Source: Scenedesmus sp. PABB004 (Eukaryota). Taken from it: a DNA stretch of 64,000 bases. The DNA is taken from NCBI GenBank assembly GCA_014905635.1, contig JABVCE010000009.1, positions 1,054,001 through 1,118,000 on the forward strand. The letters run 5' to 3'. The position numbers and the translations under genes are program-made. Shown piece by piece: positions 48,200-64,000 of the stretch. Position 1 is the stretch's first letter; the number at the start of each line of letters is the position of its first letter. Under the pieces are notes generated by a model, which saw only the letters and a program-made list of their open reading frames with translations, made no database searches and was not told the DNA's origin.

Positions 48200-51100
48200 C
48201 TGTGCGCGGGGCTGCCGCGGTGCAGCGGGAAGAAGAGCACCTGCCTCTTTGCCCCGCTCCACCGCGGCGGCGCCGCGCCCGGCACGGCCCTGCGCAGGGC
48301 ATGCAGTCGCACCGCGCGCCACAGGGTGAGCTTCAAGCCGCGCCGTCGGCACACGTCGCCTGCGGGCCTGCAGCTCACCCTGCGGAGTGTTGTGCCTGCA
48401 GCCGCGCGCGCGGGCCGCGCCGGCGGCGCGGCGGCCGGCCATCTGACCAGACCGACGCGCGCGCGCGCGCGCGCGCGCGCGCGCCCCAGCTCGCGCAGCA
48501 CCGCGGCGCGGGGCGGGATGGGGGGCGCGCGCGCGCGGCTCGCACGCGCCGCGTCCCGCGCGCCCCGCCCACACCCCCGCCCCGCCCCCGCCCACGACCA
48601 ACCCTTTGCGCAGCGCCGTGAGCGTGAGCGCGGGCGCGGTGAAGCCGCCCCCGCTGCCCAGGTGTATGTAGCTCGGACCCTGCGCACGGGGCCTTCCTAC
48701 CGCACCTGGCGAGCGGCGGCGGCTTCGCGGCGCGCGCGCTCGCGCTGGCGGTGCTTGCGCCTGGAGACTCCGCCTCCAAGCTTACCACCGCCGCTGCATC
48801 GCGCACTCGGGCAAAGGTGCGGCGCGCCGCGCCCCGCCGCTGCCGCCCCAGCCCCAGCCGCCGCCGCAAAGCGCGGCCGCGAAGCGCGCGCCCCACCTTG
48901 TGCTTGTTGACAGGCGTCAACAAGTGCAAGGTGGGGCGTGGCAGCAGCGGCGCAGGGGCGGGGCGGGGGGGGGGGGGGGCAGGGCGCGGCGGCCGGCCAT
49001 CTGACCAGACCGGGGCGGGGCACGCGCGCCCGCCTGGGATCACGCTGGGATCACGCTGTTGGGGTCACGCTGCTCCTCCTCAGGGGACAGCGTGCGCGGC
49101 TGGCCCCGGGGGTGTCATCAGACGCTGTCGCCCGGTCGTCGTGACCGCGTCGGACATTCCCAGGGCCAGCTGCGTCCGCTGCTCACGGTGCTGACCTCGG
49201 CGTGTGCTCACGACGTTGCGCACGCAGCCCGGGGCGGCACCACCGACTTGGCAGCCGCGCGCGTGCTGCGCGCGTGCTGCGTGCTGTGCGCGTGCTGGGT
49301 GCTGCGCGTGTGCATGCTGCGTGCTGCGTGCTGCGCCGCAGAAGCTGCAGCCACGCCGAACTGGAGGCCCGCCACCTCGCTCTTGGGCTGTATGCGCAGC
49401 ATGAGTTGCGCGTGGAGCTGAAGAGCGAGGTGGCTGGCCTCCCGCTCGGCGCTGGCGGCCGGCTGCAGCCGCGATGATGCGTTGTAGCTCCCCGAGCAAA
49501 GGCAGCAACACCGCCATCATCGTGCGCGAGCGCCCGGGCGGCATCGACGTGGCGTCGCCGGGGGTGCCTCGCGTGCCGCTCGCGGCGGGCACCCGCTGGC
49601 GCTCGCGCACCGTCCGGCCGCCCACCCGCTGCGGGTGGCGGCGCCCACGTCCGTCACTCTCGGCAAGGTCGAAGCTGGGTTGGCCGGCATCAGCTACGCG
49701 CCGCGCGCCGGCCAGCCCAGCTTCAACCTGGCCGGGTGGCATGACGGCTGTCCACGTAGAGCGCGGCGGTGGCGCCCACGGACCGGTCACGGGCGTCAGG
49801 TCAAAGCTGACCGGCCCGCGGTGCGCCGCGGTCGCGCGCGGCGGTCGCGCGCCCGCGCGCCCGCCCCGCCGTCCTCGCGCGCCCGCGCGCGCCGATCGAG
49901 CGCGGCGGCACGCCCCTGGCGTGCATCGCCCACTCGGGCAAGGTGCGCGGCGGCCGCGCGGGCGGGCGGGACGCGCGCGCGCCGCGCACTCGCGCGCTCG
50001 CTGTGCCGCGCGCGCCGCCGCGCACTCGCACGCGCCCCGCCCCGCCCCGCCCCGCGCCCCGGCCCCCCGTGCCGCAGCTGCGCCCCGCCGGCCACCGTGC
50101 CACCACTGTGAGGGCCGCGATGGGCTGGAGGCTGCTGAGCTGGGCGCGCAAACACACTACACACACACCGCCATCCTCGTGCGGCTGTTTGCGGTGGCGC
50201 TCGCACCTGCTGAGCTCAGCTGAGCTCAGCTGAGCTCAGCCGCACGGAGTCACGCCCCCGACGCAGTCGAGCCACGCCGGGCTAGAGCACGGTCCTCGTG
50301 AGCTTGAGCCCGGGGCCGAGCTTGAGCCCGGCGTGGCTGGTCGGCGGCGGGGACGCAGCCGCGGCGACGCGCCGCACGGCCCTCCTCCCCTCCCCGCCGC
50401 CCTCGGGGGCCGGGCGCTGGGCGGCGTCGCCGCCGAGCCGCTGAGCGAGGTGAAGAGCAGGGCACCGGGGGCGGTGGCTGCTGTTCACCTGTCTCAGCGG
50501 CTTGGTGGTGGTGGCGACTTGGCTCAGCCCGTGCGGCGGCACCGCCGCGCCGCAGCGCACGGTGGAGAGCCTGGCGGCGGGCGGGGACAGCGCCTTGACC
50601 AAGAAGCGTTCCTGGTGACGGCCCCGATCACGCGCGGCGCCAGGCTGCTCAGCGCCGCGGCGCTGGTGCGCGTGCTGCACACAACGTCGCCAGCGCCCAG
50701 GACTCCTCGTGAGCGTGCTCGCGGCGTCGGCGGCGTGGCAGGAGCGCGAGGAGGTGCGGGCGCGCGCGGCGCGTGCGCTGGGAGCGCCGGCCGGCGCCGC
50801 GCGCGCGCGCCCACGGGCCTGCGCCCGCCGCCCGCGGGCCCACCGCCCGCGCCGATCGCGCCGATCGCGCCCGCGCGCCCGCGCGCGCGCGGCGCGCGCC
50901 CACCGTTGCCGGCCGCGCGGCCAAGCATAGCCGCTGGCTGGCGGCGTGTGCCGCGAGGTCCACGTCGTAGGCTGGGGTGTTGACGACGTGGGCCTGCGCC
51001 CCGAGCCTACGACGTGGGCCTGGCCGCGCACGCCGCCAGCGGCGCGCCCACCGCGGCCAGCTCGACCTCGCGCGGCCCGCGCCCCTCGCGCCTGCAGACC

Positions 51101-55902: not shown

Positions 55903-57092
55903 GCCGGGCGGCCGAGGGGCCGAGCGAGGCGCCGCGCGGCGCGCGGCGAGGCGCGAGGGAGAGGCGAGGGGACCAGGCTGAGGGCTGAGGGCGCGGTCGG
56001 GCGGGAGCAAGAGCAAGGGCGGGCGGGAGCAAGGGCGGCGGCGGGCCCGCGCGAGGCACGGCGCGGCACGGCGCGCGTGGCGGCCCCGGCGCCTTGGCGT
56101 GCGGAGGCGTGCGAGGGGAGTGCGGCCGGGCGGGCGGGCGGGCGGGCGGGCCGGGGCCAGCTCAGGAGGCTGCGGCGGCGCGCGTGGAGCGCGGGGCGGC
56201 GGCGCGAAGCGCCGCGGGCACGGGCATGGGCAACGGGAGGGCCGGCGATGGCGGCGCGTGCGTTCCGAGGCGAGCTCGGCAATGGCCGCGCGCGATGCGG
56301 CGCCGTGCCCACAGCCCCGTGCCGCCCCGCCTCGCCGCGCGGCGCCGCCCCTGAACCTGCAGGCCCAGCTGGGCCGCGCCCCTGACCGGGCCGGGGCAGC
56401 GGGGAGCCCGGCGGCGGCCGCGGCCGCCCGCGCCTGTGGCGGACGTCGGTGACCCTGCAGCGGGGCCGCGGCGGCCCGCGCCGGCCGGCGCGCCCGCGGC
56501 CGCCCTGCCGGCGTCGCGCTCGCAATGTTCGTCGCGGACCGTGCGCGGCGCGGCGCGGCCGCCCGCGCCCCCAGCCGCGCGGCCGGCCGCGGCTCGGGCA
56601 GGCATGGCGCGGCCCCGACGCCGCCCGCGGGCGCGCTGCCGCGGCGCGCGGCGCGAACGCGACGTCACCGCACGCTGCGCTTACTGGGCGTGCGACGGCG
56701 CGCGGGAGCCGCGCGGGGCGGCGCCGGGCGGCCGCGCGCGGGCGGCGGCGCCGCGGCGCCGTTCGCGGCCGCGCTGTTGAAGGTCCTGGGTTGTCTGGTC
56801 TGCTTGCAGGCCAGCCCGCTACAGCAGCAGCGCCCTCGCGCGCCCACGCGTGCGCGCGTGCGCTGCCTGAGCTGTTTCGGCAAGAGTTTCACTGCAAGAG
56901 CCGGGGGCTCAGAACTCCCGTGGAGTACACACCACCGTGAGCGGAAGGGTGAACAGGAGAAGTTCCCAGCCTGCCGCGTGCCCTATAAAGGCTCCGCGCG
57001 CCACCGGCGCTTGTAACGAAGCACTCTGCCGCACCCAATCAGCGCTCTCGCGATCACAACACCCGCCTTGAGCGAGAGCCTTCCGGCGCGGC

Positions 57093-57170
57093 GCGGGACA
57101 CCGTCCTTAAGGGGCGCGGGACCAATGGGCGCGAGCGTGTGGTGTAACTATCTTTATCTTTATCTTTTAT
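57093..57170 (+). mobile_element. Family B non-LTR retroelement 3' stub with (TATCTT)n tail
   Basis: gggacaccgtccttaaggggcgcgggaccaatgggcgcgagc..tgtaa followed by ctatctttatctttatcttt; same as other B copies; no TSD seen. Confidence 0.8.
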
Positions 57171-57174
57171 CCCC

Positions 57175-57519
57175 AGAGAAGAAGAGAAGAAGGGCAACTG
57201 GGTTCCCCAAGAAGAAGAAGGGCGTTACCAGGGGTGAACAAGCGCCTACGGCGCAAACACGGACCCCCAGAAGAAGGGCGTTACCAGGGGTGAACAAGCG
57301 CCTACGGCGCAAACACGGACCCCCAGAAGAAGGGCGTTACCAGGGGTAAACACGGACCCCCAATGAAAGAAGAAGGGCGTTACCAGGGGTGAACAAGCGC
57401 CTACGGCGCAAACACGGACCCCATCACTTTGGTATAGTCAGTCACTCACGCGCAGCTGCCGCCCATGGCCACGCTCACGCCCAAAAGCGTCACCTGCACA
57501 CACTCACGGACCCCCAATG
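57175..57519 (-). mobile_element. Tandem stack of very short 5'-truncated 3' ends of L1-like family A with (TCT)n tails
   Basis: Repeated ...cccctggtaacgcccttcttct units separated by (catt)gggggtccgtg; matches the 3' end of the long copy. Confidence 0.82.
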
Positions 57520-58187
57520 AGAGAGAAGGGCGTTACCAGGGGTGAACAAGCGCCTACGGCGCAAACACGGACCCCATCACTTTGGTATAGTCAGTCACTC
57601 ACGCGCAGCTGCCGCCCGTGGCCACGCTCACGCCCAAAAGCGTCACCTGCACACACTCAGTGCTGTCTCCGCGCACACACCTTGACCGATCGCTCGCTGC
57701 TGGGCAGTAGCAGTATTTCAGTGTCGGCGGCAGCCGGTGACCGCGGGTCGCGCGTGCCCGCGAGCGCGCAACCCGCGCGCGCGGGAGTGCTGGGAGAATG
57801 CCACCATCCTCATCGCCGAATAACAACCAAGCCACTCCCCGCGACGCGGGGAGTGCACCAAGCCAGAAAGGGCTGGCCCGTCAGGTCGGGCGTACGGGCA
57901 GCGCGGGGCACGTAAGCGGTCGCCGCAAAGTCGGCCAGCGCCTCCCAAAACGCACTCACCGCCGCCCGCCTGACTATGTCTCGGGCCACGTCAAAGGGCA
58001 AGGCACGCTCCCGCACTTGCAGGAAAATCCAGGCCACGCGCCGGCCGCGTTCGCACGCGTGAATTGCAGCGATGCAGACCATGTCCCAGACCATCTGGGA
58101 CAGCTGCTCCCGCGGCTGGCACCCCAGCCAGATGTGCCTGCAGTGCAAGCGCGCGCCGTCCGGCCACCAGTCAAAAGCAACCAGCTG

Positions 58188-58382
58188 GCGCGGCGAGTCG
58201 GTGTGCAGCACTGGAGCAGGCTCGGCGTTATTTGCTTGGTGACCTGCTGCAGGATCAGCTTGCTGTTCACTCTGTGGCAGATTATGTGATGGACATCTGG
58301 AAGATGCGGGACACCGTCCTTAAGGGGCGCGGGACCAATGGGCGCGAGCCTGTGGTGTAACTATCTTTATCTTTATCTTTTT
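58188..58382 (+). mobile_element. Family B (RTEX-like) 5'-truncated insertion, TSD AGCTG
   Basis: Encodes CAALEQARRYLL..IWKMRDTVLKGRGTNGREPVV*, then (TATCTT)n; TSD at 58183-58187 and 58383-58387. Confidence 0.85.
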
Positions 58383-59133
58383 AGCTGCTTCTCGATCTCA
58401 CCCCACACCTCGCCTGCCACCGGGCACCGCCAGAAATGGTGCGCCTCGCTCGGGTGCAGCGCGCCGCCCAGTCCGGACGCCTCCGCTGGCTCCGGCGCCT
58501 CCGGCGGCCCTGGGCAGCAGTAGACACAATAGTCCACCATGCCCGGCCCCGGCTGCATGCGGCTGGCAGTCGGAAAGGCCTGCAGCGTGAGCCGCCATGC
58601 CGCCTCCTTGTACGTGTTGGGCACCTTGAGCTGCCACCAGCGCGCCAGGGCTTGGCACACCGTGGCGTGGCGCGTGCGCATCGCAAGCTCATCACCCCCA
58701 ATGTGCGGCAAACCATCAAACTCAGAAACCGTCAGACAGTGGCGGTGGTGGCGGGCATGCAGCTCCGCGCGCGCCGGCAGCGCCTGCAGCCGCGTGGCCA
58801 GCGCCACCGTGAGCTGCCCCAGCCGTACCCCCGGCCGGCAACCAGGCTGCACCGGCCGACCCACAAGCGGCCAGCCCAGGCCAACCGCAATCGCCGCACG
58901 CGCCGCCGCCAACGCTGCTGGCTGCACCGGCGCCGGGGCGCTCACGGGCTGGCCCGCGCGCGCCGCCGCCGCCAGCCGAGCTCGCGCCGCCGCCACCCAG
59001 GATGGCGGCAGCCTGTCAACCAGCGCACGCACGTCATCGAGTGCACGCTGCCTACCTGCATGGTAACACTGCCGGGAAGCCAGGCATGGCACCCAGACTG
59101 CAGCCAGGTAATTCATGTGTTCCGCCAACCCAA

Positions 59134-59377
59134 CGGCGTGTGCTGCGTGTGCGCCTGGGCAGGCTTGCCGCGGTTGGTGTGTGGTGCCCCTGCTGGTGGC
59201 GGCCTGCCCCACGTCGTTTGCGTGAGATGAGGCGGGGTTTGCGCTGGTTTTCCCCCGCTGCCCCTGTGGCCCGGTAGGGCCTGCGCGGCGTGGCTGCACG
59301 GTCAAGAGGACCAGCTACCGTCCTTAAGGGGCGCGGGCCCGATGTGCGCGAGCATACGGGGTAAATGACCTTGACCT
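59134..59377 (+). mobile_element. Family C 5'-truncated retroelement with (TGACCT)n tail, TSD AACCCAA
   Basis: TSD at 59127-59133 and 59378-59384; near-identical to the 3' part of 61938-62706. Confidence 0.87.
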
Positions 59378-59523
59378 AACCCAAGGCCCCAACGAGGCGG
59401 AGTCAACCGATCCGATTCAAGAACGGCCAGCAGCGTGACCGCCTGGCCCACCGTCTGCAGGCAGGGCAGCCCGCGCAAGCCCGGGGCCGCCACACATTCC
59501 AAGCCCACTGCCACATCACGCAC

Positions 59524-59703
59524 TGACCCCGGGGCTTAGGGCCTTGCGGCCTGTGCCCGGCGCTGTAGCAGTGAAGGGGTGGTTTTCTGACGGTTTTCCC
59601 ACGGCGCGTGCGCACCAAGCGTGCCGCCCAAGAACGCATTCGTTCTTGCCCTGCCCCGAGTCGGGAATCCCGACTGAGCCTGCGTGTAACAACAACAACA
59701 ACA
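59524..59703 (+). mobile_element. Family D short retroelement insertion with TGTAA and (AAC)n tail, TSD ACGCAC
   Basis: TSD at 59518-59523 and 59704-59709; removing it rejoins host frame PGEECVR|DVAVGL. Confidence 0.82.
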
Positions 59704-60984
59704 ACGCACACACTCCTCCCCCGGCTGGGCCGGCCAGCGCCACTGCTGCCGCACCGTGAGCAGCGGGTTGCCCCACAGGGGGGCATCCCAGCTGTGGGCC
59801 CGCCAGTCATACTCGCCCGGCCCCAGCCACTCCAGCGGCGGCAGCGCGCGCAGCCCGAGCGCGAACGAGCGCAGGGGCTGCGGCAGCCGCTGGCGCCCGC
59901 TGTCAAAAAGAAGGCGTTTGTCGCACAACATCAATCCCCACACCGTGTCCCCGCACGCGCCCGCATCGGGGCGCACGCGATCTGCCCACACGCGCCAAAG
60001 CTCCCCACACGCCGCCGCCCAGGGCACTGCACCCGCGGCCCCCTGCCCCGTGATGAGCTCCGCGCCCTCCATCGCCCAGCGCGCATGCAGGTGTTCGCGC
60101 ACCGGCAGCAGCCCCATGCCTCCCTCCCTCGGATGCGCAGCCATGCATGCCTTGGGGATGCCGGGCGGGCGGCGCAGGTCGCCCTCGGGGTCCAACCCTG
60201 CGTCCACCAGCCCTCCGCACCACTTTAGGATGTCAGTGAGATGCTGCTCAGTCAAGCCACCCCCAAACTGGCCCGCGTAGAGCACCGTGGCCAGCGCGTA
60301 CGCGTTGGCCGCAAAGGCGCGGCCAAACGACGACATGCGCGGGAGCATCGACACACGCCGCAGCGCGCGCCGCACGTGTGTCATACGCGTCTCCCAATCA
60401 GCGTCGCTGCCGCCCCGACCGTCAAACACCATCCCCAACGCTGCAGCAGTGTGCACGACGGGCATGCCGTGCACCGCATGGGGCTGGCCGCCGCTCCCCG
60501 CCGCCGCCGCCTGCAGCCCAATGGGCAGCAGCTTGGTTTTGGTGAGGTTGAGGCGCTGCCCCGACGCCGCTGCAAAGTCATTCATGCACCCGCAAAAGTG
60601 GGGGACGCCCTGCAGCGAGGTGATGAACGGCTCCGCGTCATCCGCGTACTGCGCCGCCACCACCTGGGTGCCCGCTGCAGCCAGCCCCACCCCACACGCA
60701 CGGAGGTGGCACAGGAGCGCCTGCCCCACAAACAGGTACAGCAAGGGCGCCAGCGGGCAGCCCTGCCTCACGCCCGCCTGACACGCATACAGAGACGACG
60801 AAAATCCATTGACGCACGCGCACGTGCGCGTGTTGGTCAACAACACCGACATCCAGCCCAGGAATCCTGACCCCACCCCAAGCTGCTCCGCTACCGCCAG
60901 CAAGAAACCCCTGTCCACGGTGTCGTAGGCCTTGCTTAAATCAGTGAAAATCGCGACCGCCCCCCGTCCCTCTGCCCGCAGCAA

Positions 60985-61432
60985 AGATAAAGATAAAGAT
61001 AAAGATAGTTACACCACAGGCTCGCGCCCATTGGTCCCGCGCCCCTTAAGGACGGTGTCCCGCATCTTCCAGATGTCCATCACATAATCTGCCACAGAGT
61101 GAACAGCAAGCTGATCCTGTAGCAGGTCACCAAGCAGATAACGCCGAGCCTGCTCCAGTGCTGCACACCGACTCGCCGCGCCGGTAACGGCAGCCCGAGG
61201 GGCCGCCGCACCAGCAGAGACGCTGCTGACGCTGACCGCCGCGCTGACATCATCAGCCCGAGGGGCCGCCGTATCAGCCGTGACGCCGCTATCGCTGATG
61301 CTGACCGCCGCGCCTGCGTCAGCAGCCCGAGGGGCCGCCGCGCTAGCCACGACGCCGGGGTCGCTGACGCTGCCGCTGCCGCCGCCGCCAGCTCCAGCCT
61401 CCAGCTCCTGGCTGCCGCTAGCCGCCATCCCG
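60985..61432 (-). mobile_element. Family B (RTEX-like) 5'-truncated insertion, TSD GCAGCAA
   Basis: TSD at 60978-60984 and 61433-61439; splits host RT at ALPALL|RAEGRG. Confidence 0.87.
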
Positions 61433-61937
61433 GCAGCAATGCCGGGAGGGCCTGCAGCAGCCTGATGCTGTCCCGAATCTGTCGCCCGCGCAGGAACGCG
61501 CTCTGACTGGTGTCGATGACTGAGTCCGCCACGCTGAGCAGGCGCGAGGCCAGCACCTTGGCCAGGATCCGGTAGTCATAGTTGAGCAGTTGGATCGGTC
61601 TGTACGCCCCTGGGTCCGCACCGTCGCCCCCAGGCTTGAGGATGGGAATGGCGACACCGTCGAGGAACGACGGCGGCACCGCCCCCGCCCGCCCGATGGC
61701 CGAGTACAGCGCTGCCAGCAGCGGGCTGAACTGCGCGCGGTACGCGCGGAACAGCTCGCCCGGCAGGCCGTCCAGCCCCGGCGCCTTACCCGGCGCCGTC
61801 GCCGCAATCGCCGCCAGCACCTCCGCGCCGGTGACGGTGGGCGCGCCCAGGCTCGCCGCCTGCTGAGGCTCGAGCCGCTGCGAGTGCTGCTGCACCGCCT
61901 GCAGCACCACTTGGCGCGCCGCCGGCGTGACCGCGGG

Positions 61938-62706
61938 GGCTGCGCATCACAGGCGGCGGTGGGGCGGCAGCAGCGCGGCCGGCGGCGCCGGACGGAGAGG
62001 GCGTCCCCGGCGTGCGTAGAGGTGCACGCCGAGCCGTGGCGTGCTGCTGCTGCGTGACCTTCGTTTGGTGCTGAGCTGGGCGCGGCTGGCTCGGGGCGCG
62101 GCGCGCGCGTGGGTGTGGGCGGCGGTGGGGGGAGCGTGGGCGGGCTTGCGGCAGGCTTTTTGGTGGTGGGCGGTGCGTGCGGCTGGCCTTTTGGCCGAGC
62201 CGCCCGCGGGTCCTGGAGGGGGCTGGAGCTGGTGGGCGTTGGCCGGCGCGGGGCGGCGGTCGCCGCGGACCACGGCCCCGCGCGCGACGCCCAGCCGGCG
62301 CACGCCGGCCCCGCAGTGTTGAGTCCACAGAGTCTCCACTAGCCGCCCTGCACGGCCTACACGCGTCTACCGGTCATCCTTCCCCAAGCTCCTAACATTC
62401 GGTGCACCACGTCGCAGGGGGCGCGACTCTGCGAGTGACGGCCGGCGGGGCGCGGCGCGGCGCGGCGTGTGCTGCGTGTGCGCCTGGGCGGGCTTGCCGC
62501 GGTTGGTGTGTGGTGCCCCTGCTGGCGGCGGCCTGCCCCACGTCGTTTGCGTGAGATGAGGCGGGGTTTGCGCTGGTTTCCCCCCGCTGCCCCTGTGGCC
62601 CGGTAGGGCCTGCGCGGCGTGGCTGCACGGTCAAGAGGACCAGCTACCGTCCTTAAGGGGCGCGGGCCCGATGTGCGCGAGCATACGGGGTAAATGACCT
62701 TGACCT
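61938..62706 (+). mobile_element. Family C longest copy with (TGACCT)n tail, TSD TGACCGCGGG
   Basis: TSD at 61928-61937 and 62707-62716. Confidence 0.87.
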
Positions 62707-63029
62707 TGACCGCGGGCTGCGCCGTGATGCCAGCGTAGTGGCGGCCCATGATGCGCGCGAGGCAGACGCCCCTACGCACGACGTGCCCCGAGCCAGGGGC
62801 CCGCAGGCCCCCGACAAACGTGGCGCCCTTGGGCTGCCGCATCACGCTGCTCATGGCCCTGCCCGGCCGCTCGCCGCCGTGCACCCAGCGCTGCCGCCTG
62901 CGCTGCCGCTGCTCGCGCTCGCTCTGGGCGTCCAGCGCAGCGAGGGCGCCGCGCGCCGCCACCACTGCCGCCAGCGCCGCCGGCAGGGCGTGCTGGGCGC
63001 AGCCCTCCGCCACCAAGTTGGCCGCGGTG

Positions 63030-63201
63030 GTCAAGGTCAAGGTCATTTACCCCGTATGCTCGCGCACATCGGGCCCGCGCCCCTTAAGGACGGTAGCTGG
63101 TCCTCTTGACCGTGCAGCCACGCCGCGCAGGCCCTACCGGGCCACAGGGGCAGCGGGGGAAAACCAGCGCAAACCCCGCCTCATCTCACGCAAACGACGT
63201 T
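63030..63201 (-). mobile_element. Family C 5'-truncated insertion, TSD GCGGTG
   Basis: TSD at 63024-63029 and 63202-63207. Confidence 0.85.
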
Positions 63202-63469
63202 GCGGTGAGCGCTGCCACTGCCGCCGCGCGCGCCGCCGCGCGCGACTGGTGCGCCCGCCGCTGCGCCGCCAGCCTATTGAGTTCCCCCACCTTGGCAATG
63301 AGTTGCTGCTTGAATGTCGGCCACCAGCCCAACACCGCCGCGTCGCCCGCGGGGGCGTGCTGCGCGTGCAGCCAGTCGCGCAGGGCGCGCTGACACACGG
63401 CGTCGCCTTGGAAGGAGAGGCGCAGGCGCTTGAGCCCCGGGCCCAGCGCGTCGCGCCCCCGCGGCAGTA

Positions 63470-63534
63470 AAAAGATAAAGATAAAGATAGTTACACCACA
63501 GGCTCGCGCCCATTGGTCCCGCGCCCCTTAAGGA
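63470..63534 (-). mobile_element. Family B 65-bp 3' stub, TSD CAGTA
   Basis: TSD at 63465-63469 and 63535-63539. Confidence 0.85.
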
Positions 63535-63915
63535 CAGTAGCAAGGCTACGACCGCGGTGTGGTCGCTGACCGCGCCCAGCCGGTCTGCGTGCCAGCACGA
63601 CGCCAGCTGCGGGGCGACGCCCGCCGACAAATGTATCCTGTCCAGCTGCCTCGCGGCTGGGGCAACGCCCGCCGACAAATGTATCCTGTCCAGCTGCCTC
63701 GCGGCTGGACAGGATACATTTGTCGGCGGGCGTCCAGCTGCCTCGCGGCTGGACAGGATACATTTGTCGGCGGGCGTCCAGCTGCCTCGCGGCTGGACAG
63801 GATACATTTGTCGGCGGGCGTCGCCCCGCAGCTGGCGTCGTGCTGGCACGCACGGACCCGAGAAGGGCGTTACCAGGGACGCACGGACCCCCAATGCAAA
63901 ACATCTTGACGACCG

Positions 63916-63988
63916 CGACCGCGGTGGGGATCGAACCCACGACCCTCGCCTCCGGAAAGCGATGCTCTATCCACTGAGCCACGCGGCC
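63916..63988 (-). tRNA. tRNA-Arg(CCG)
   Basis: 73-nt cloverleaf: acceptor GGCCGCG/CGCGGTC, D arm GCTCAGTGGATAGAGC, anticodon arm TCGCT-TTCCGGA-GGCGA, T arm GTGGG-TTCGATC-CCCAC; TTTT terminator at 63898-63901. Confidence 0.96.
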
Positions 63989-64000
63989 CGTCCATTGGTA

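Follow-up and report, generated by a model that had tools for sequence, protein, structure and literature searches.

An accretion array of L1-type LINE 3′ ends beside a tRNA-Arg(CCG) gene in Scenedesmus sp. PABB004

The 64,000-nt stretch of Scenedesmus sp. PABB004 DNA analyzed here (the window) contains a real and well-resolved accretion array of an L1-type green-algal LINE, designated family A, next to a tRNA-Arg(CCG) gene. On the minus strand, the tRNA trailer precedes six family A 3′ ends (CCTGGTAACGCCC(TTC)n), all in the same orientation, plus one diverged unit (Table 1). The array junctions are consistent with repeated target-primed insertion in which the element rebuilt its own target as a duplication, and judged by its layout the array looks like a known kind of behavior, the Zepp habit of green-algal L1 elements of piling onto their own copies. 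We put the probability at about one in two that such accretion took place in one 14-bp stretch, starting 20 nt 3′ of the tRNA gene, through no fewer than five separate events of target-primed reverse transcription. The link to the tRNA gene is, as it stands, a single coincidence.

The shared junction and the array units

The minus-strand tRNA-Arg with a TTTT named in the preliminary description proved to be a real gene. ARAGORN placed a minus-strand tRNA-Arg(ccg) at 63915-63988, and the RF00005 match, which was the sole Rfam hit within the window, was full length (1-71) with 61.6 bits versus a gathering score of 29. On this strand the gene is followed by the trailer CGGTCGTCAAGATGTTTTGC, whose T4 would serve as the terminator according to established Pol III biology, and then by the 14-mer ATTGGGGGTCCGTG. 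The LINE junctions fall 20-34 nt beyond the tRNA end, 2 nt after the TTTT, and are oriented like the tRNA gene; the junction previously placed ~34 nt past the tRNA 3′ end corresponds to the far end of the 14-mer, the first junction being at 20 nt.

The 14-mer occurs three times versus 0.01 expected, and none of 100 shuffles reached three copies, so that the recurrence noticed earlier is indeed far above chance; GGGTCCGTG was found eight times (0.70 expected) and CCTGGTAACGCCCTTCT six times (0.01 expected). Two of the eight GGGTCCGTG sites, at 57413 and 57566, belong to the 3′ UTR of the 140-bp copy and that of the large copy, respectively. The supposed separator of the two 45-bp units is continuous with element sequence (GGGGTCCGTGTTTGCGCC) without a break. 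The suggestion that the target resembles the 3′ UTR of the element was borne out, since the terminal 10 nt of the 14-mer are identical to the 3′ UTR stretch GGGGTCCGTG present at both of these internal positions; by our own estimate, a 10-mer would match a 290-nt UTR by chance with a probability of ~1e-3. At its far end, the array carries GGGG only and lacks the full 14-mer; therefore, GTCCGTG was absent from the original flank.

Table 1. Features of the tRNA-proximal array, in order along the minus strand (coordinates within the window)
Feature	Coordinates	Strand	Basis
tRNA-Arg(CCG) gene	63916..63988	-	ARAGORN; Rfam RF00005
tRNA 3′ trailer, 20 nt, with T4 at +15 to +18	63896..63915	-	Read from sequence
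14-mer ATTGGGGGTCCGTG, first copy (reused target / target-site duplication)	63882..63895	-	Exact-copy count
A1, 22-bp family A 3′ end (CGT + CCCTGGTAACGCCC + TTCTC)	63860..63881	-	Motif counts, reading
GGGTCCGTG, right duplication of A1 and left junction of the large copy	63851..63859	-	Motif count
Inverted duplication at the A2 5′ end, with 44/48-bp tandem repeats	63701..63852	-	Arms, TRF, tblastn
A2, large family A copy	57520..63700	-	Pfam RVT_1 on two pieces; tblastn maps
B4, nested 70-bp family B 3′ end, (CTTTAT)n-type tail, duplication ~5 bp	63465..63534	-	Self-BLAST
C3, nested 178-bp family C 3′ end, (TGACCT)n tail, duplication CACCGC	63024..63201	-	Self-BLAST
C2, nested family C fragment, ~750 bp	61962..62711	+	Self-BLAST; ORF2 map
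B3, nested 455-bp family B fragment, duplication TTGCTGC	60978..61432	-	Self-BLAST, TRF
D, nested 186-bp LINE 3′ end, tail GTGTAAC(AAC)n, duplication ACGCAC	59518..59703	+	Contig joints; reading
C1, nested 251-bp family C 3′ end, duplication AACCCAA	59127..59377	+	Self-BLAST
B2, nested 200-bp family B 3′ end, duplication AGCTG	58183..58382	+	Self-BLAST
14-mer ATTGGGGGTCCGTG, second copy	57505..57518	-	Exact-copy count
A3, 140-bp family A 3′ end, tail TTCTTCTTTC	57365..57504	-	Reading; TRF
14-mer ATTGGGGGTCCGTG, third copy	57351..57364	-	Exact-copy count
A4, 26-bp family A 3′ end (TTTACCCCTGGTAACGCCC + TTCTTCT)	57325..57350	-	Reading
A5, GGGGGTCCGTG (57314-57324) + 45-bp 3′ end (57269-57313) + GGGGGTCCGTG of the next unit (57258-57268)	57258..57324	-	Reading; motif counts; TRF
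A6, second 45-bp 3′ end, longer tail (TTCTTCTTCTT)	57209..57257	-	Reading; TRF
Diverged unit GGGG-AACCCAGTTGCCC-TTCTTCTCTTCTTCTCT-GGGG	57171..57208	-	Reading
B1, ~80-bp family B 3′ end	57089..57170	+	Self-BLAST

The family A 3′ end consists of TGGTAACGCCC followed by a (TTC)n tail. The 5′ truncation differs per unit (22, ~4,200 net, 140, 26, 45, and 45 nt), as do the tails (TTCTC, TTCTCTCTC, TTCTTCTTTC, TTCTTCT, TTCTTCT, and TTCTTCTTCTT), and the units are bracketed by identical direct repeats of 14, 11, or 9 nt. On the strength of these truncations, tails, and repeats, multiple independent 5′-truncated insertions at one site with target-site duplications, as first proposed, are the best reading of the array, and the unit sizes given at that time (22 bp, ~6.3 kb, 140, 26, 45, 45, and one diverged) were correctly read. 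A1 is bracketed on both sides by the 9-bp duplication GGGTCCGTG, the right-hand copy of which shares its final bases with an inverted arm reaching 63852. A2 is flanked by GGGTCCGTG on the left and the 14-mer on the right, and A3 by the 14-mer on both sides (TRF period 153, 2.0 copies, 98%). A4 together with the preceding 14-mer equals the 56-bp unit minus a 19-nt inner hairpin, while A5 is continuous element 3′ UTR sequence throughout (TRF period 56, 2.5 copies, 98%) and has the same sequence as A6 except for the tail length. The diverged unit is either the oldest insertion or native flank; a weak 26-letter match to it was found in a different context in one X8 contig. B1 abuts the family A array tail-to-tail in the opposite orientation.

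The large copy, its nested inserts, and its relatives

The A2 copy was mapped by tblastn with P0002, P0003, P0007, P0011, and the ORF2 of L001, the closest full-length relative. Its 5′ cut falls at approximately residue 406-410 of the L001 ORF2 reference, inside the end of the endonuclease domain, and it retains only the SDH end of the endonuclease, followed by the RT, the putative zf-RVT region, the 3′ UTR (57520-57812), and the tail TTCTCTCTC. The copy originally described as ~6.3 kb is a composite, in which only ~4.2 kb are family A and the remainder consists of seven nested fragments of three other LINE families. Since independent metagenome contigs join precisely across six of these seven, the nested inserts are discrete insertions: the joints are 63464>63535 for B4 (missing from X1 and X3 contigs), 63023>63202 for C3 (X7), 60977>61433 for B3 (X3), 59517>59704 for D (X1, X3, and X8), 59126>59378 for C1 (X1 and X3), and 58182>58383 for B2 (X1, X3, and X7). 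The left limit of C2 was set from a gap in the ORF2 map, and an X1 contig spans 62064-62711 unbroken. B3, which contains 69-bp tandem repeats, sits inside the RT between motifs 2 and 3. Within the window, three of the four family B copies, all three family C copies, and the single D copy lie inside A2, away from the tRNA.

At the 5′ end of A2, two inverted arms of 75 nt (63586-63660 and 63778-63852) are 93% complementary, TRF detected periods of 48 and 44, and tblastn recovered the endonuclease C-terminal peptide of A2 once more within the inverted duplication, encoded on the plus strand (63760-63852). Inverted 5′ ends are familiar from L1 as products of 5′ inversion by twin priming and of snap-back, and A2 likewise begins with an inverted stretch of its own sequence. 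However, classical twin priming inverts an upstream segment without duplicating it, whereas the inverted arm of A2 duplicates the adjacent sequence, giving a palindrome with 44/48-bp repeats.

The assignment to L1-type LINEs was supported by the full-length relative and by RVT_1 matches that exceed the Pfam cut-off on each A2 ORF piece (E = 3.3e-07 and 2e-14). The best PDB sequence match was human L1 ORF2p (E = 3e-10). The endonuclease remnant comprises the last ~40 residues (...RLGAVSDHTAVV) and aligns with L001 ORF2 410-479 (E = 2.5e-08); the complete domain was visible in L001 only. The zf-RVT match was below the cut-off (E = 0.0063, 17.6 versus 27.5 bits), with CVYCC...HHFWRCP visible in the translation. 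L001, which has 54% identity to the RT ORF, contains ORF1 and a 1611-aa ORF2 with Exo_endo_phos, RVT_1, and zf-RVT; it matches human L1 ORF2p collinearly (E = 2e-40), including the endonuclease, for which the Exo_endo_phos score was below the cut-off (E = 2.8e-04, 21.2 versus 24.5 bits). The named matches were proteins of Chlorella, Parachlorella, Nannochloris, Volvox, Chlamydomonas, and Tetrabaena. The family A 3′-end pattern had no match in the metagenome, genome, and viral contig collections.

Tandem arrays were present in 4 of the 15 related loci showing the ORF2 C-terminus (L001, L005, L006, and L012), with a 5′-truncated same-strand copy after the tail of the first copy. The contigs of these four carried no tRNA, the upstream sequence being short on L001 and L006. 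Among 38 related loci, none had a tRNA beside a LINE end as in the array, and only L024 had a tRNA at all, 570 bp from the LINE 5′ end on the opposite strand. One of the 37 related loci scanned with Rfam, L006, had a 5S rRNA gene, with 3′-end arrays within ~240 bp on either side. Proximity to a Pol III gene was not common among the relatives (tRNA 1/38; 5S 1/37).

Origin of the array

In the accretion reading, an early short insertion would have joined the flank ...GCATTGGGG to the GGGGTCCGTG of the element via GGGG microhomology, thereby creating the 14-mer. For later insertions, the bottom strand may have been nicked at any of three points spanning 5 nt (GC^ATT^GG^GGG) and the top strand after GTCCGTG, so that each insertion would have regenerated the site as its own target-site duplication, open to the next. 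Microhomology between the site and the 3′ UTR may also underlie the recurrent 45-nt truncation. Self-targeting of the Zepp kind, initially raised only as an alternative, provides the better fit, given that the end of the 14-mer is the element's own 3′ UTR sequence and that relatives form tandem arrays without a tRNA. The tRNA gene is then a neighbor that at most gave the founding insertion somewhere accessible to land without harm.

Several observations weigh against accretion of this kind. The three full 14-mer events and A1 all occurred at the tRNA-proximal junction, and the equivalent internal sites GATGGGGTCCGTG at 57413 and 57566 received no insertion. If the sites were equal, the odds of always choosing the leftmost would be roughly 1 in 15 by our own estimate, which hints at an influence of the upstream context on the tRNA side. 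Family B is represented at the same spot by B1 in the opposite orientation, and the L006 arrays flank another Pol III gene. These points, together with the position and orientation of the junctions just past the terminator, would favor true Pol III-gene targeting, in which family A, perhaps with family B, is anchored at the transcription or termination complex of the tRNA gene, inserts immediately after the terminator, and homes repeatedly to this tRNA gene. TRE3 elements, located 14-305 bp downstream of tRNA genes (PMC5006619), provide a precedent. The view of the tRNA or Pol III gene as the target was nevertheless not supported: it concerns a single tRNA locus, none of the 38 related loci shows the geometry, the contigs of the four array-bearing relatives carry no tRNA, and the B, C, and D copies of the window lie mostly elsewhere. 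The ~187 kb of related loci contain two Pol III genes, which does not clearly exceed the approximate background density of such genes. We regard targeting of the TRE3 type as unlikely, and it is doubtful that in this ~80% GC chlorophycean alga the Pol III termination zone is a homing target of family A, and possibly of family B, which is unrelated, with integration 20-34 nt past the tRNA end and rebuilding of the site each time. Were it so, a LINE group outside Amoebozoa would have arrived independently at tRNA (and perhaps 5S) genes as safe havens, and Zepp-like arrays would then be a by-product of site regeneration.

The TRF periods of 56 and 153 bp and the near identity of A5 and A6 could also be explained if only one or two units were real insertions and the 3′ end then multiplied locally by tandem duplication, replication slippage, or unequal crossing-over. 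This is improbable, because it would require a breakpoint exactly at the tail/14-mer boundary every time and would have to accommodate four distinct 5′ truncation points, irregular and differing tails, and A1, which lies 6.3 kb away beyond the large copy with its own 9-bp duplication. For the 45-bp units A5 and A6 taken by themselves, local duplication could replace separate events. We consider it very improbable that the tRNA gene is the passenger of a chimeric retrocopy, acquired when the reverse transcriptase left family A RNA for a nascent pre-tRNA-Arg with UUUU at its end, in the manner of human U6-L1 chimeras. The tRNA does lie directly 5′ of the LINE units in the same orientation, and the trailer TTTT is just 2-5 nt before element-like sequence. 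However, the ATT between the trailer and GGGG was duplicated with the 14-mer and was therefore genomic DNA by the time of the later insertions, the tRNA has the score of a normal gene, and the remainder of the array would be left unexplained; for the corresponding duplication search, the window holds 12 nt of flank upstream of the tRNA. An assembly artefact, to which a palindrome and many repeats 98-100% identical to one another might predispose, is similarly hard to credit in a 1.3 Mb contig with an aperiodic structure, clean duplications at every junction, and nested joints confirmed by independent contigs.

Comparison with known elements and significance

Like Zepp of Coccomyxa subellipsoidea C-169 and ZeppL-1_cRei of Chlamydomonas, described in PMC8226300 and PMC3446292, family A is a green-algal L1-type LINE whose new copies appear to land at resident ones. 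In Zepp clusters (PMC8226300), nested insertion targeting existing copies leads to tandem arrays, mostly of 3′ ends because 5′ truncation is frequent. Family A has the same tandem co-oriented 3′-end array, the likeness being one of array pattern. However, Zepp clusters measure 1.5-42 kb, are found once on each chromosome, and are presumed centromeric, whereas the family A array comprises seven units beside a tRNA gene and carries a (TTC)n tail. Zepp itself is poly(A)-tailed.

Dictyostelium TRE3 elements are LINEs with endonuclease, RT, and zinc finger downstream of tRNA genes, which family A resembles with its RT, endonuclease remnant, and putative zinc finger beside a tRNA gene. The definition of TRE3 targeting, however, draws on tens of independent loci in each family, while family A is known at one locus, with a closer junction (20-34 nt) and relatives without tRNA association. 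Target preference within the L1 group is also found in the sequence-specific LINEs of the Tx1 clade, described from animals, with Koshi in (TTC)n, Kibi in (TC)n, and Keno in U2 snRNA genes (PMC4494074). Koshi shares the (TTC)n motif, but family A units are not inside (TTC)n, since GGGG or ATTGGGGG always stands between a tail and the next unit. Microsatellite targeting of the Koshi type was rejected, as the 5′ flanks are the tRNA trailer, which has no TTC repeat, or GGGG / ATTGGGGGTCCGTG.

This locus is an unusually legible record of the reuse of one site by an algal L1 element, in which all junctions, duplications, and truncations can be read. The junction record shows how an insertion can rebuild its own target, and so supplies a concrete mechanism by which Zepp-type clusters, the centromere markers of some green algae, can arise. 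A tRNA link, if it proved general, would give the green lineage a convergent example of targeting to Pol III genes.

The tandem array beside tRNA-Arg(CCG)

The array of LINE family A was re-read on the minus strand, unit by unit, from tRNA-Arg(CCG) through the 3′ ends A1 to A6 (see table). In the window, the 14-mer direct repeat between the units was counted 3 times where 0.01 were expected; the count was 8 for the 9-mer GGGTCCGTG (0.70 expected) and 6 for the 17-nt family A end (0.01 expected). The preliminary description proved accurate. Self-comparison and homologue mapping found no family A in the rest of the window, and the exact 23-nt pattern of its 3′ end had no match in the metagenome, genome, and viral contig collections. 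The tRNA-Arg(CCG), the sole Rfam match within the window, is a real gene. The tRNA-Gly(acc) call of ARAGORN had no Rfam tRNA match at that place and was taken as a probable false positive in very GC-rich DNA. The GC content of the window is ~80%, falling to 68–72% over the LINE island, so the GC content of the transposable elements is well below that of the host genome.

Positions of the array units and associated features (window coordinates unless a related locus, L, is named)
Feature	Position	Strand	Sequence or remark
tRNA-Arg(CCG)	63915-63988 (ARAGORN); 63916-63988 (Rfam)	minus	61.6 bits (Rfam)
Trailer	first after tRNA-Arg	minus	CGGTCGTCAAGATGTTTTGC
14-mer, first copy	after trailer	minus	ATTGGGGGTCCGTG
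A1	after first 14-mer	minus	22 bp; CGTCCCTGGTAACGCCCTTCTC
9-mer	A1/A2 boundary	minus	GGGTCCGTG
A2	after 9-mer	minus	6.3 kb span; 3′ end ...CCCTGGTAACGCCCTTCTCTCTC
A2 ORF2 backbone	63663 down to 57813	minus
A2 inverted arms	63586-63660 / 63778-63852		75 nt, 93% complementary
Duplicate of A2 start	63760-63852	plus	codes for same peptide as A2 start
14-mer, second copy	A2/A3 boundary	minus	identical to first
A3	after second 14-mer	minus	140-bp 3′ end
14-mer, third copy	A3/A4 boundary	minus	identical to first
A4	after third 14-mer	minus	26-bp 3′ end
A5, A6	after A4	minus	2x (GGGGGTCCGTG + 45-bp 3′ end)
Diverged unit	after A6	minus	GGGGAACCCAGTTGCCC(TTC)n-like
Array end	after diverged unit		GGGG, then tail of family B fragment in opposite orientation
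Internal sites of GATGGGGTCCGTGTTTGCG	57413, 57566
B1-B4, C1-C3, D	57089-63534		eight fragments
Tandem repeats in B3	61190-61376		69 bp, 2.8 copies, 76%
P0001 gene model	57813-63046		677 aa
3′ hairpin	57524-57585	minus
3′ hairpin, relatives	L001:6565-6626; L038:5180-5240
Tail CTCTTCTTTTG	L001:6620-6650; L038:5230-5300		then A-rich run
Tail of L032	L032:7310-7335		(CCCTAA)n-like
5S rRNA gene	L006:7713-7831		110 bits
tRNA-Gly(acc) call	49785-49879		95 nt (ARAGORN)
LINE island	56000-64000

Four different truncation points were found among the family A units, and their tails were irregular and unlike one another, a pattern that fits separate retrotransposition events. The sequence GGGTCCGTG lies on either side of A1 and the 14-mer on either side of A3. 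A2 is bordered by GGGTCCGTG on the left and by the 14-mer on the right, as expected if the left duplication of A2 was itself the site into which A1 inserted afterwards. All junctions fit target-primed reverse transcription, with the bottom strand nicked at any of three points in a 5-nt stretch (GC^ATT^GG^GGG; +20, +23, and +25, counted from the end of the tRNA) and the top strand nicked after GTCCGTG (+34).

Two features of the array alter how it is read. First, the 14-mer closes with 10 nt identical to the 3′ UTR of family A itself (GATGGGGTCCGTGTTTGCG), and the "separator" of the 45-bp units is continuous with element sequence; second, the distal end of the array carries GGGG alone, without the 14-mer. 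A4 and the 14-mer ahead of it together equal the 56-nt unit once its inner hairpin of 19 nt is taken away. In what may be the simplest history, microhomology would have joined ...GCATTGGGG to the GGGGTCCGTG of an early short copy, and the hybrid 14-mer from this joint would have served as target and duplication for later events, being regenerated by each. The empty site at tRNA-Arg would be expected to read ...GATGTTTTGCATTGGGG, with non-A sequence immediately after it.

Repeated insertion at one site, as the preliminary description had proposed, is the best reading of the junctions, truncation points, and tails, and we place the probability of at least four independent insertion events at roughly 0.8. 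Template switching within a single event was rejected as the main cause, since it needs the 14-mer in the RNA template, yet the 3′-most units lack it. An origin of the array by local duplication of the 3′ end is improbable, and a chimeric retrocopy of tRNA and LINE, like an artefact of assembly, is very improbable indeed.

The large copy A2 and its nested inserts

Mapping with homologues and with the intact 1611-residue ORF2 of L001, the closest full-length relative, resolved A2 as a single ORF2 backbone. Two of its minus-strand ORF pieces carried RVT_1, and zf-RVT remained below threshold (Pfam). Since the backbone starts only at about residue 406–410 of 1611, where the endonuclease is about to end (...RLGAVSDH), A2 lacks both ORF1 and a functional endonuclease. 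An inverted duplicate of its first ~150 nt sits ahead of them, and tandem repeats of 44 and 48 bp lie between the arms. Seven nested fragments interrupt the backbone; they belong to three further LINE families, with the tails (CTTTAT)n (B), (TGACCT)n (C), and (AAC)n (D). The 6.3 kb originally attributed to this copy therefore stands as a span, of which ~4.2 kb is net family A and the rest nested inserts. The annotated protein P0001, named LINE-1 ORF2 of Scenedesmus sp. PABB004, was 100% identical to the RT ORF query; its gene model treats nested C2 and B3 as introns, loses RT motifs, and is an artefact that arose from annotating a dead element.

Contigs of four independent freshwater-metagenome runs were aligned to the window at 90% likeness. 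They matched family A at ≥99% identity and crossed six of the seven nested inserts with exact joints, each with 5–7 shared bases; therefore, the inserts are genuine nested insertions with short duplications. Contig cover was nil over 57253-57503 and thin over tRNA-Arg. Contig depth, which does not equal copy number, hints at a low copy number for family A and a high one for B and C. The loose ends and the joints with one short side (30-letter excerpts) comprised a flank in run X7 (CCCCGCAGACC...), 57238>57717 in X3 (side 22), and 57195>60986 in X8 (side 26). By our reconstruction, the X3 joint may represent an A end of 20 nt lying within a 3′ UTR that resembles that of A.

The eight B, C, and D fragments are packed in 7 kb, with none in the remaining 57 kb. 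Mutual identity is 98–100% among the B copies and among the C copies. In families A to D and their relatives, the 3′ terminus is TGTAAC or TGTAAA plus a microsatellite tail particular to each family, the tails seen being (CTTTAT)n, (TGACCT)n, (AAC)n, (TTC)n, (TAAG)n, (ACAA)n, and (CA)n. The tail of L032 resembles a telomere repeat. In L001 and L038, copies of one family in different contigs, a similar AAAGGTGT.A.TAG motif lies past the A-rich run at unequal distances from the tail, and this region may represent either a target common to both or a piece of the tail.

Related loci and reuse of the site

The related loci numbered 38, namely 37 metagenome contigs (181.5 kb in total) and one more. 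In 4 of the 15 loci with the ORF2 C-terminus on the contig, the tail of the first copy was followed by a 5′-truncated, same-strand copy of the same 3′ region (L001; L005, twice; L006, twice, with short inverted ends; L012). ARAGORN found no tRNA on these four contigs, and thus tandem accretion is a trait of this LINE group. L010, whose 25-nt repeat stops short of a tail, was left out of the count.

The determinant of reuse is most likely, at about even odds, the resident copy with its regenerated duplication, as in Zepp. That the tRNA gene is what family A aims at is a live rival, although unsupported and rather unlikely. In its favor, the tRNA-proximal junction was reused and the two internal look-alike sites were not (rough odds of 1 in 15 if the sites are equal), the family B fragment B1 abuts this point tail-to-tail, and Rfam detected one 5S rRNA gene among 37 related loci, in L006, with LINE-end arrays within ~240 bp on both sides. 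In this relative, which is 43% identical, the 5S gene is preceded at ~240 bp by tandem units with short inverted ends, and a further unit begins ~230 bp past it. The indirect tests were mostly against it: ARAGORN detected only one tRNA across the 38 loci, in L024, 570 bp from the truncated 5′ end of the LINE and on the opposite strand; three of four B copies, all three C copies, and the single D copy in the window sit inside A2, away from the tRNA; and the four relatives with tandem 3′ ends are free of tRNA genes on their contigs.

The predicted 3′ structure of family A pairs GGGGU with ACCCC around a GCGCC-GUA-GGCGC hairpin, 25–30 nt before the tail. Relatives with 54% protein identity share this hairpin with family A, whereas the enclosing stem differs in sequence (GGGGU/ACCCC versus GGUCU/AGACC in the relatives). 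The family A 3′ end folded no better than shuffled sequences (z = 0.14). The hairpin may be a recognition element for the RT.

Comparison with known elements

L001 carries, besides ORF1, an ORF2 with a putative endonuclease, an RT, and zf-RVT; this ORF2 is collinear with human L1 ORF2p (E = 2e-40; R2, ~1e-12), and by sequence the family A group is L1-type. TRE3 elements are described as lying 14–305 bp downstream of tRNA genes, with tens of copies per family, and are defined by many independent loci (PMC5006619), a feature that the relatives of family A lack. Koshi is reported to target (TTC)n (PMC4494074); in contrast, the family A units have no (TTC)n on their 5′ side, and such targeting was rejected. 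A full-text literature search turned up no account of a green-algal LINE that targets tRNA genes, which is not proof of absence.

Zepp clusters, 26 of which span 1.5–42 kb in the account of Blanc et al. (PMC3446292), are described by Craig et al. (PMC8226300) as forming when nested insertion targets existing copies, giving tandem arrays of mostly 3′ ends. The present array works in the same way as that description, a likeness of array behavior. The locus is most probably a further case of the known Zepp-type accretion behavior.
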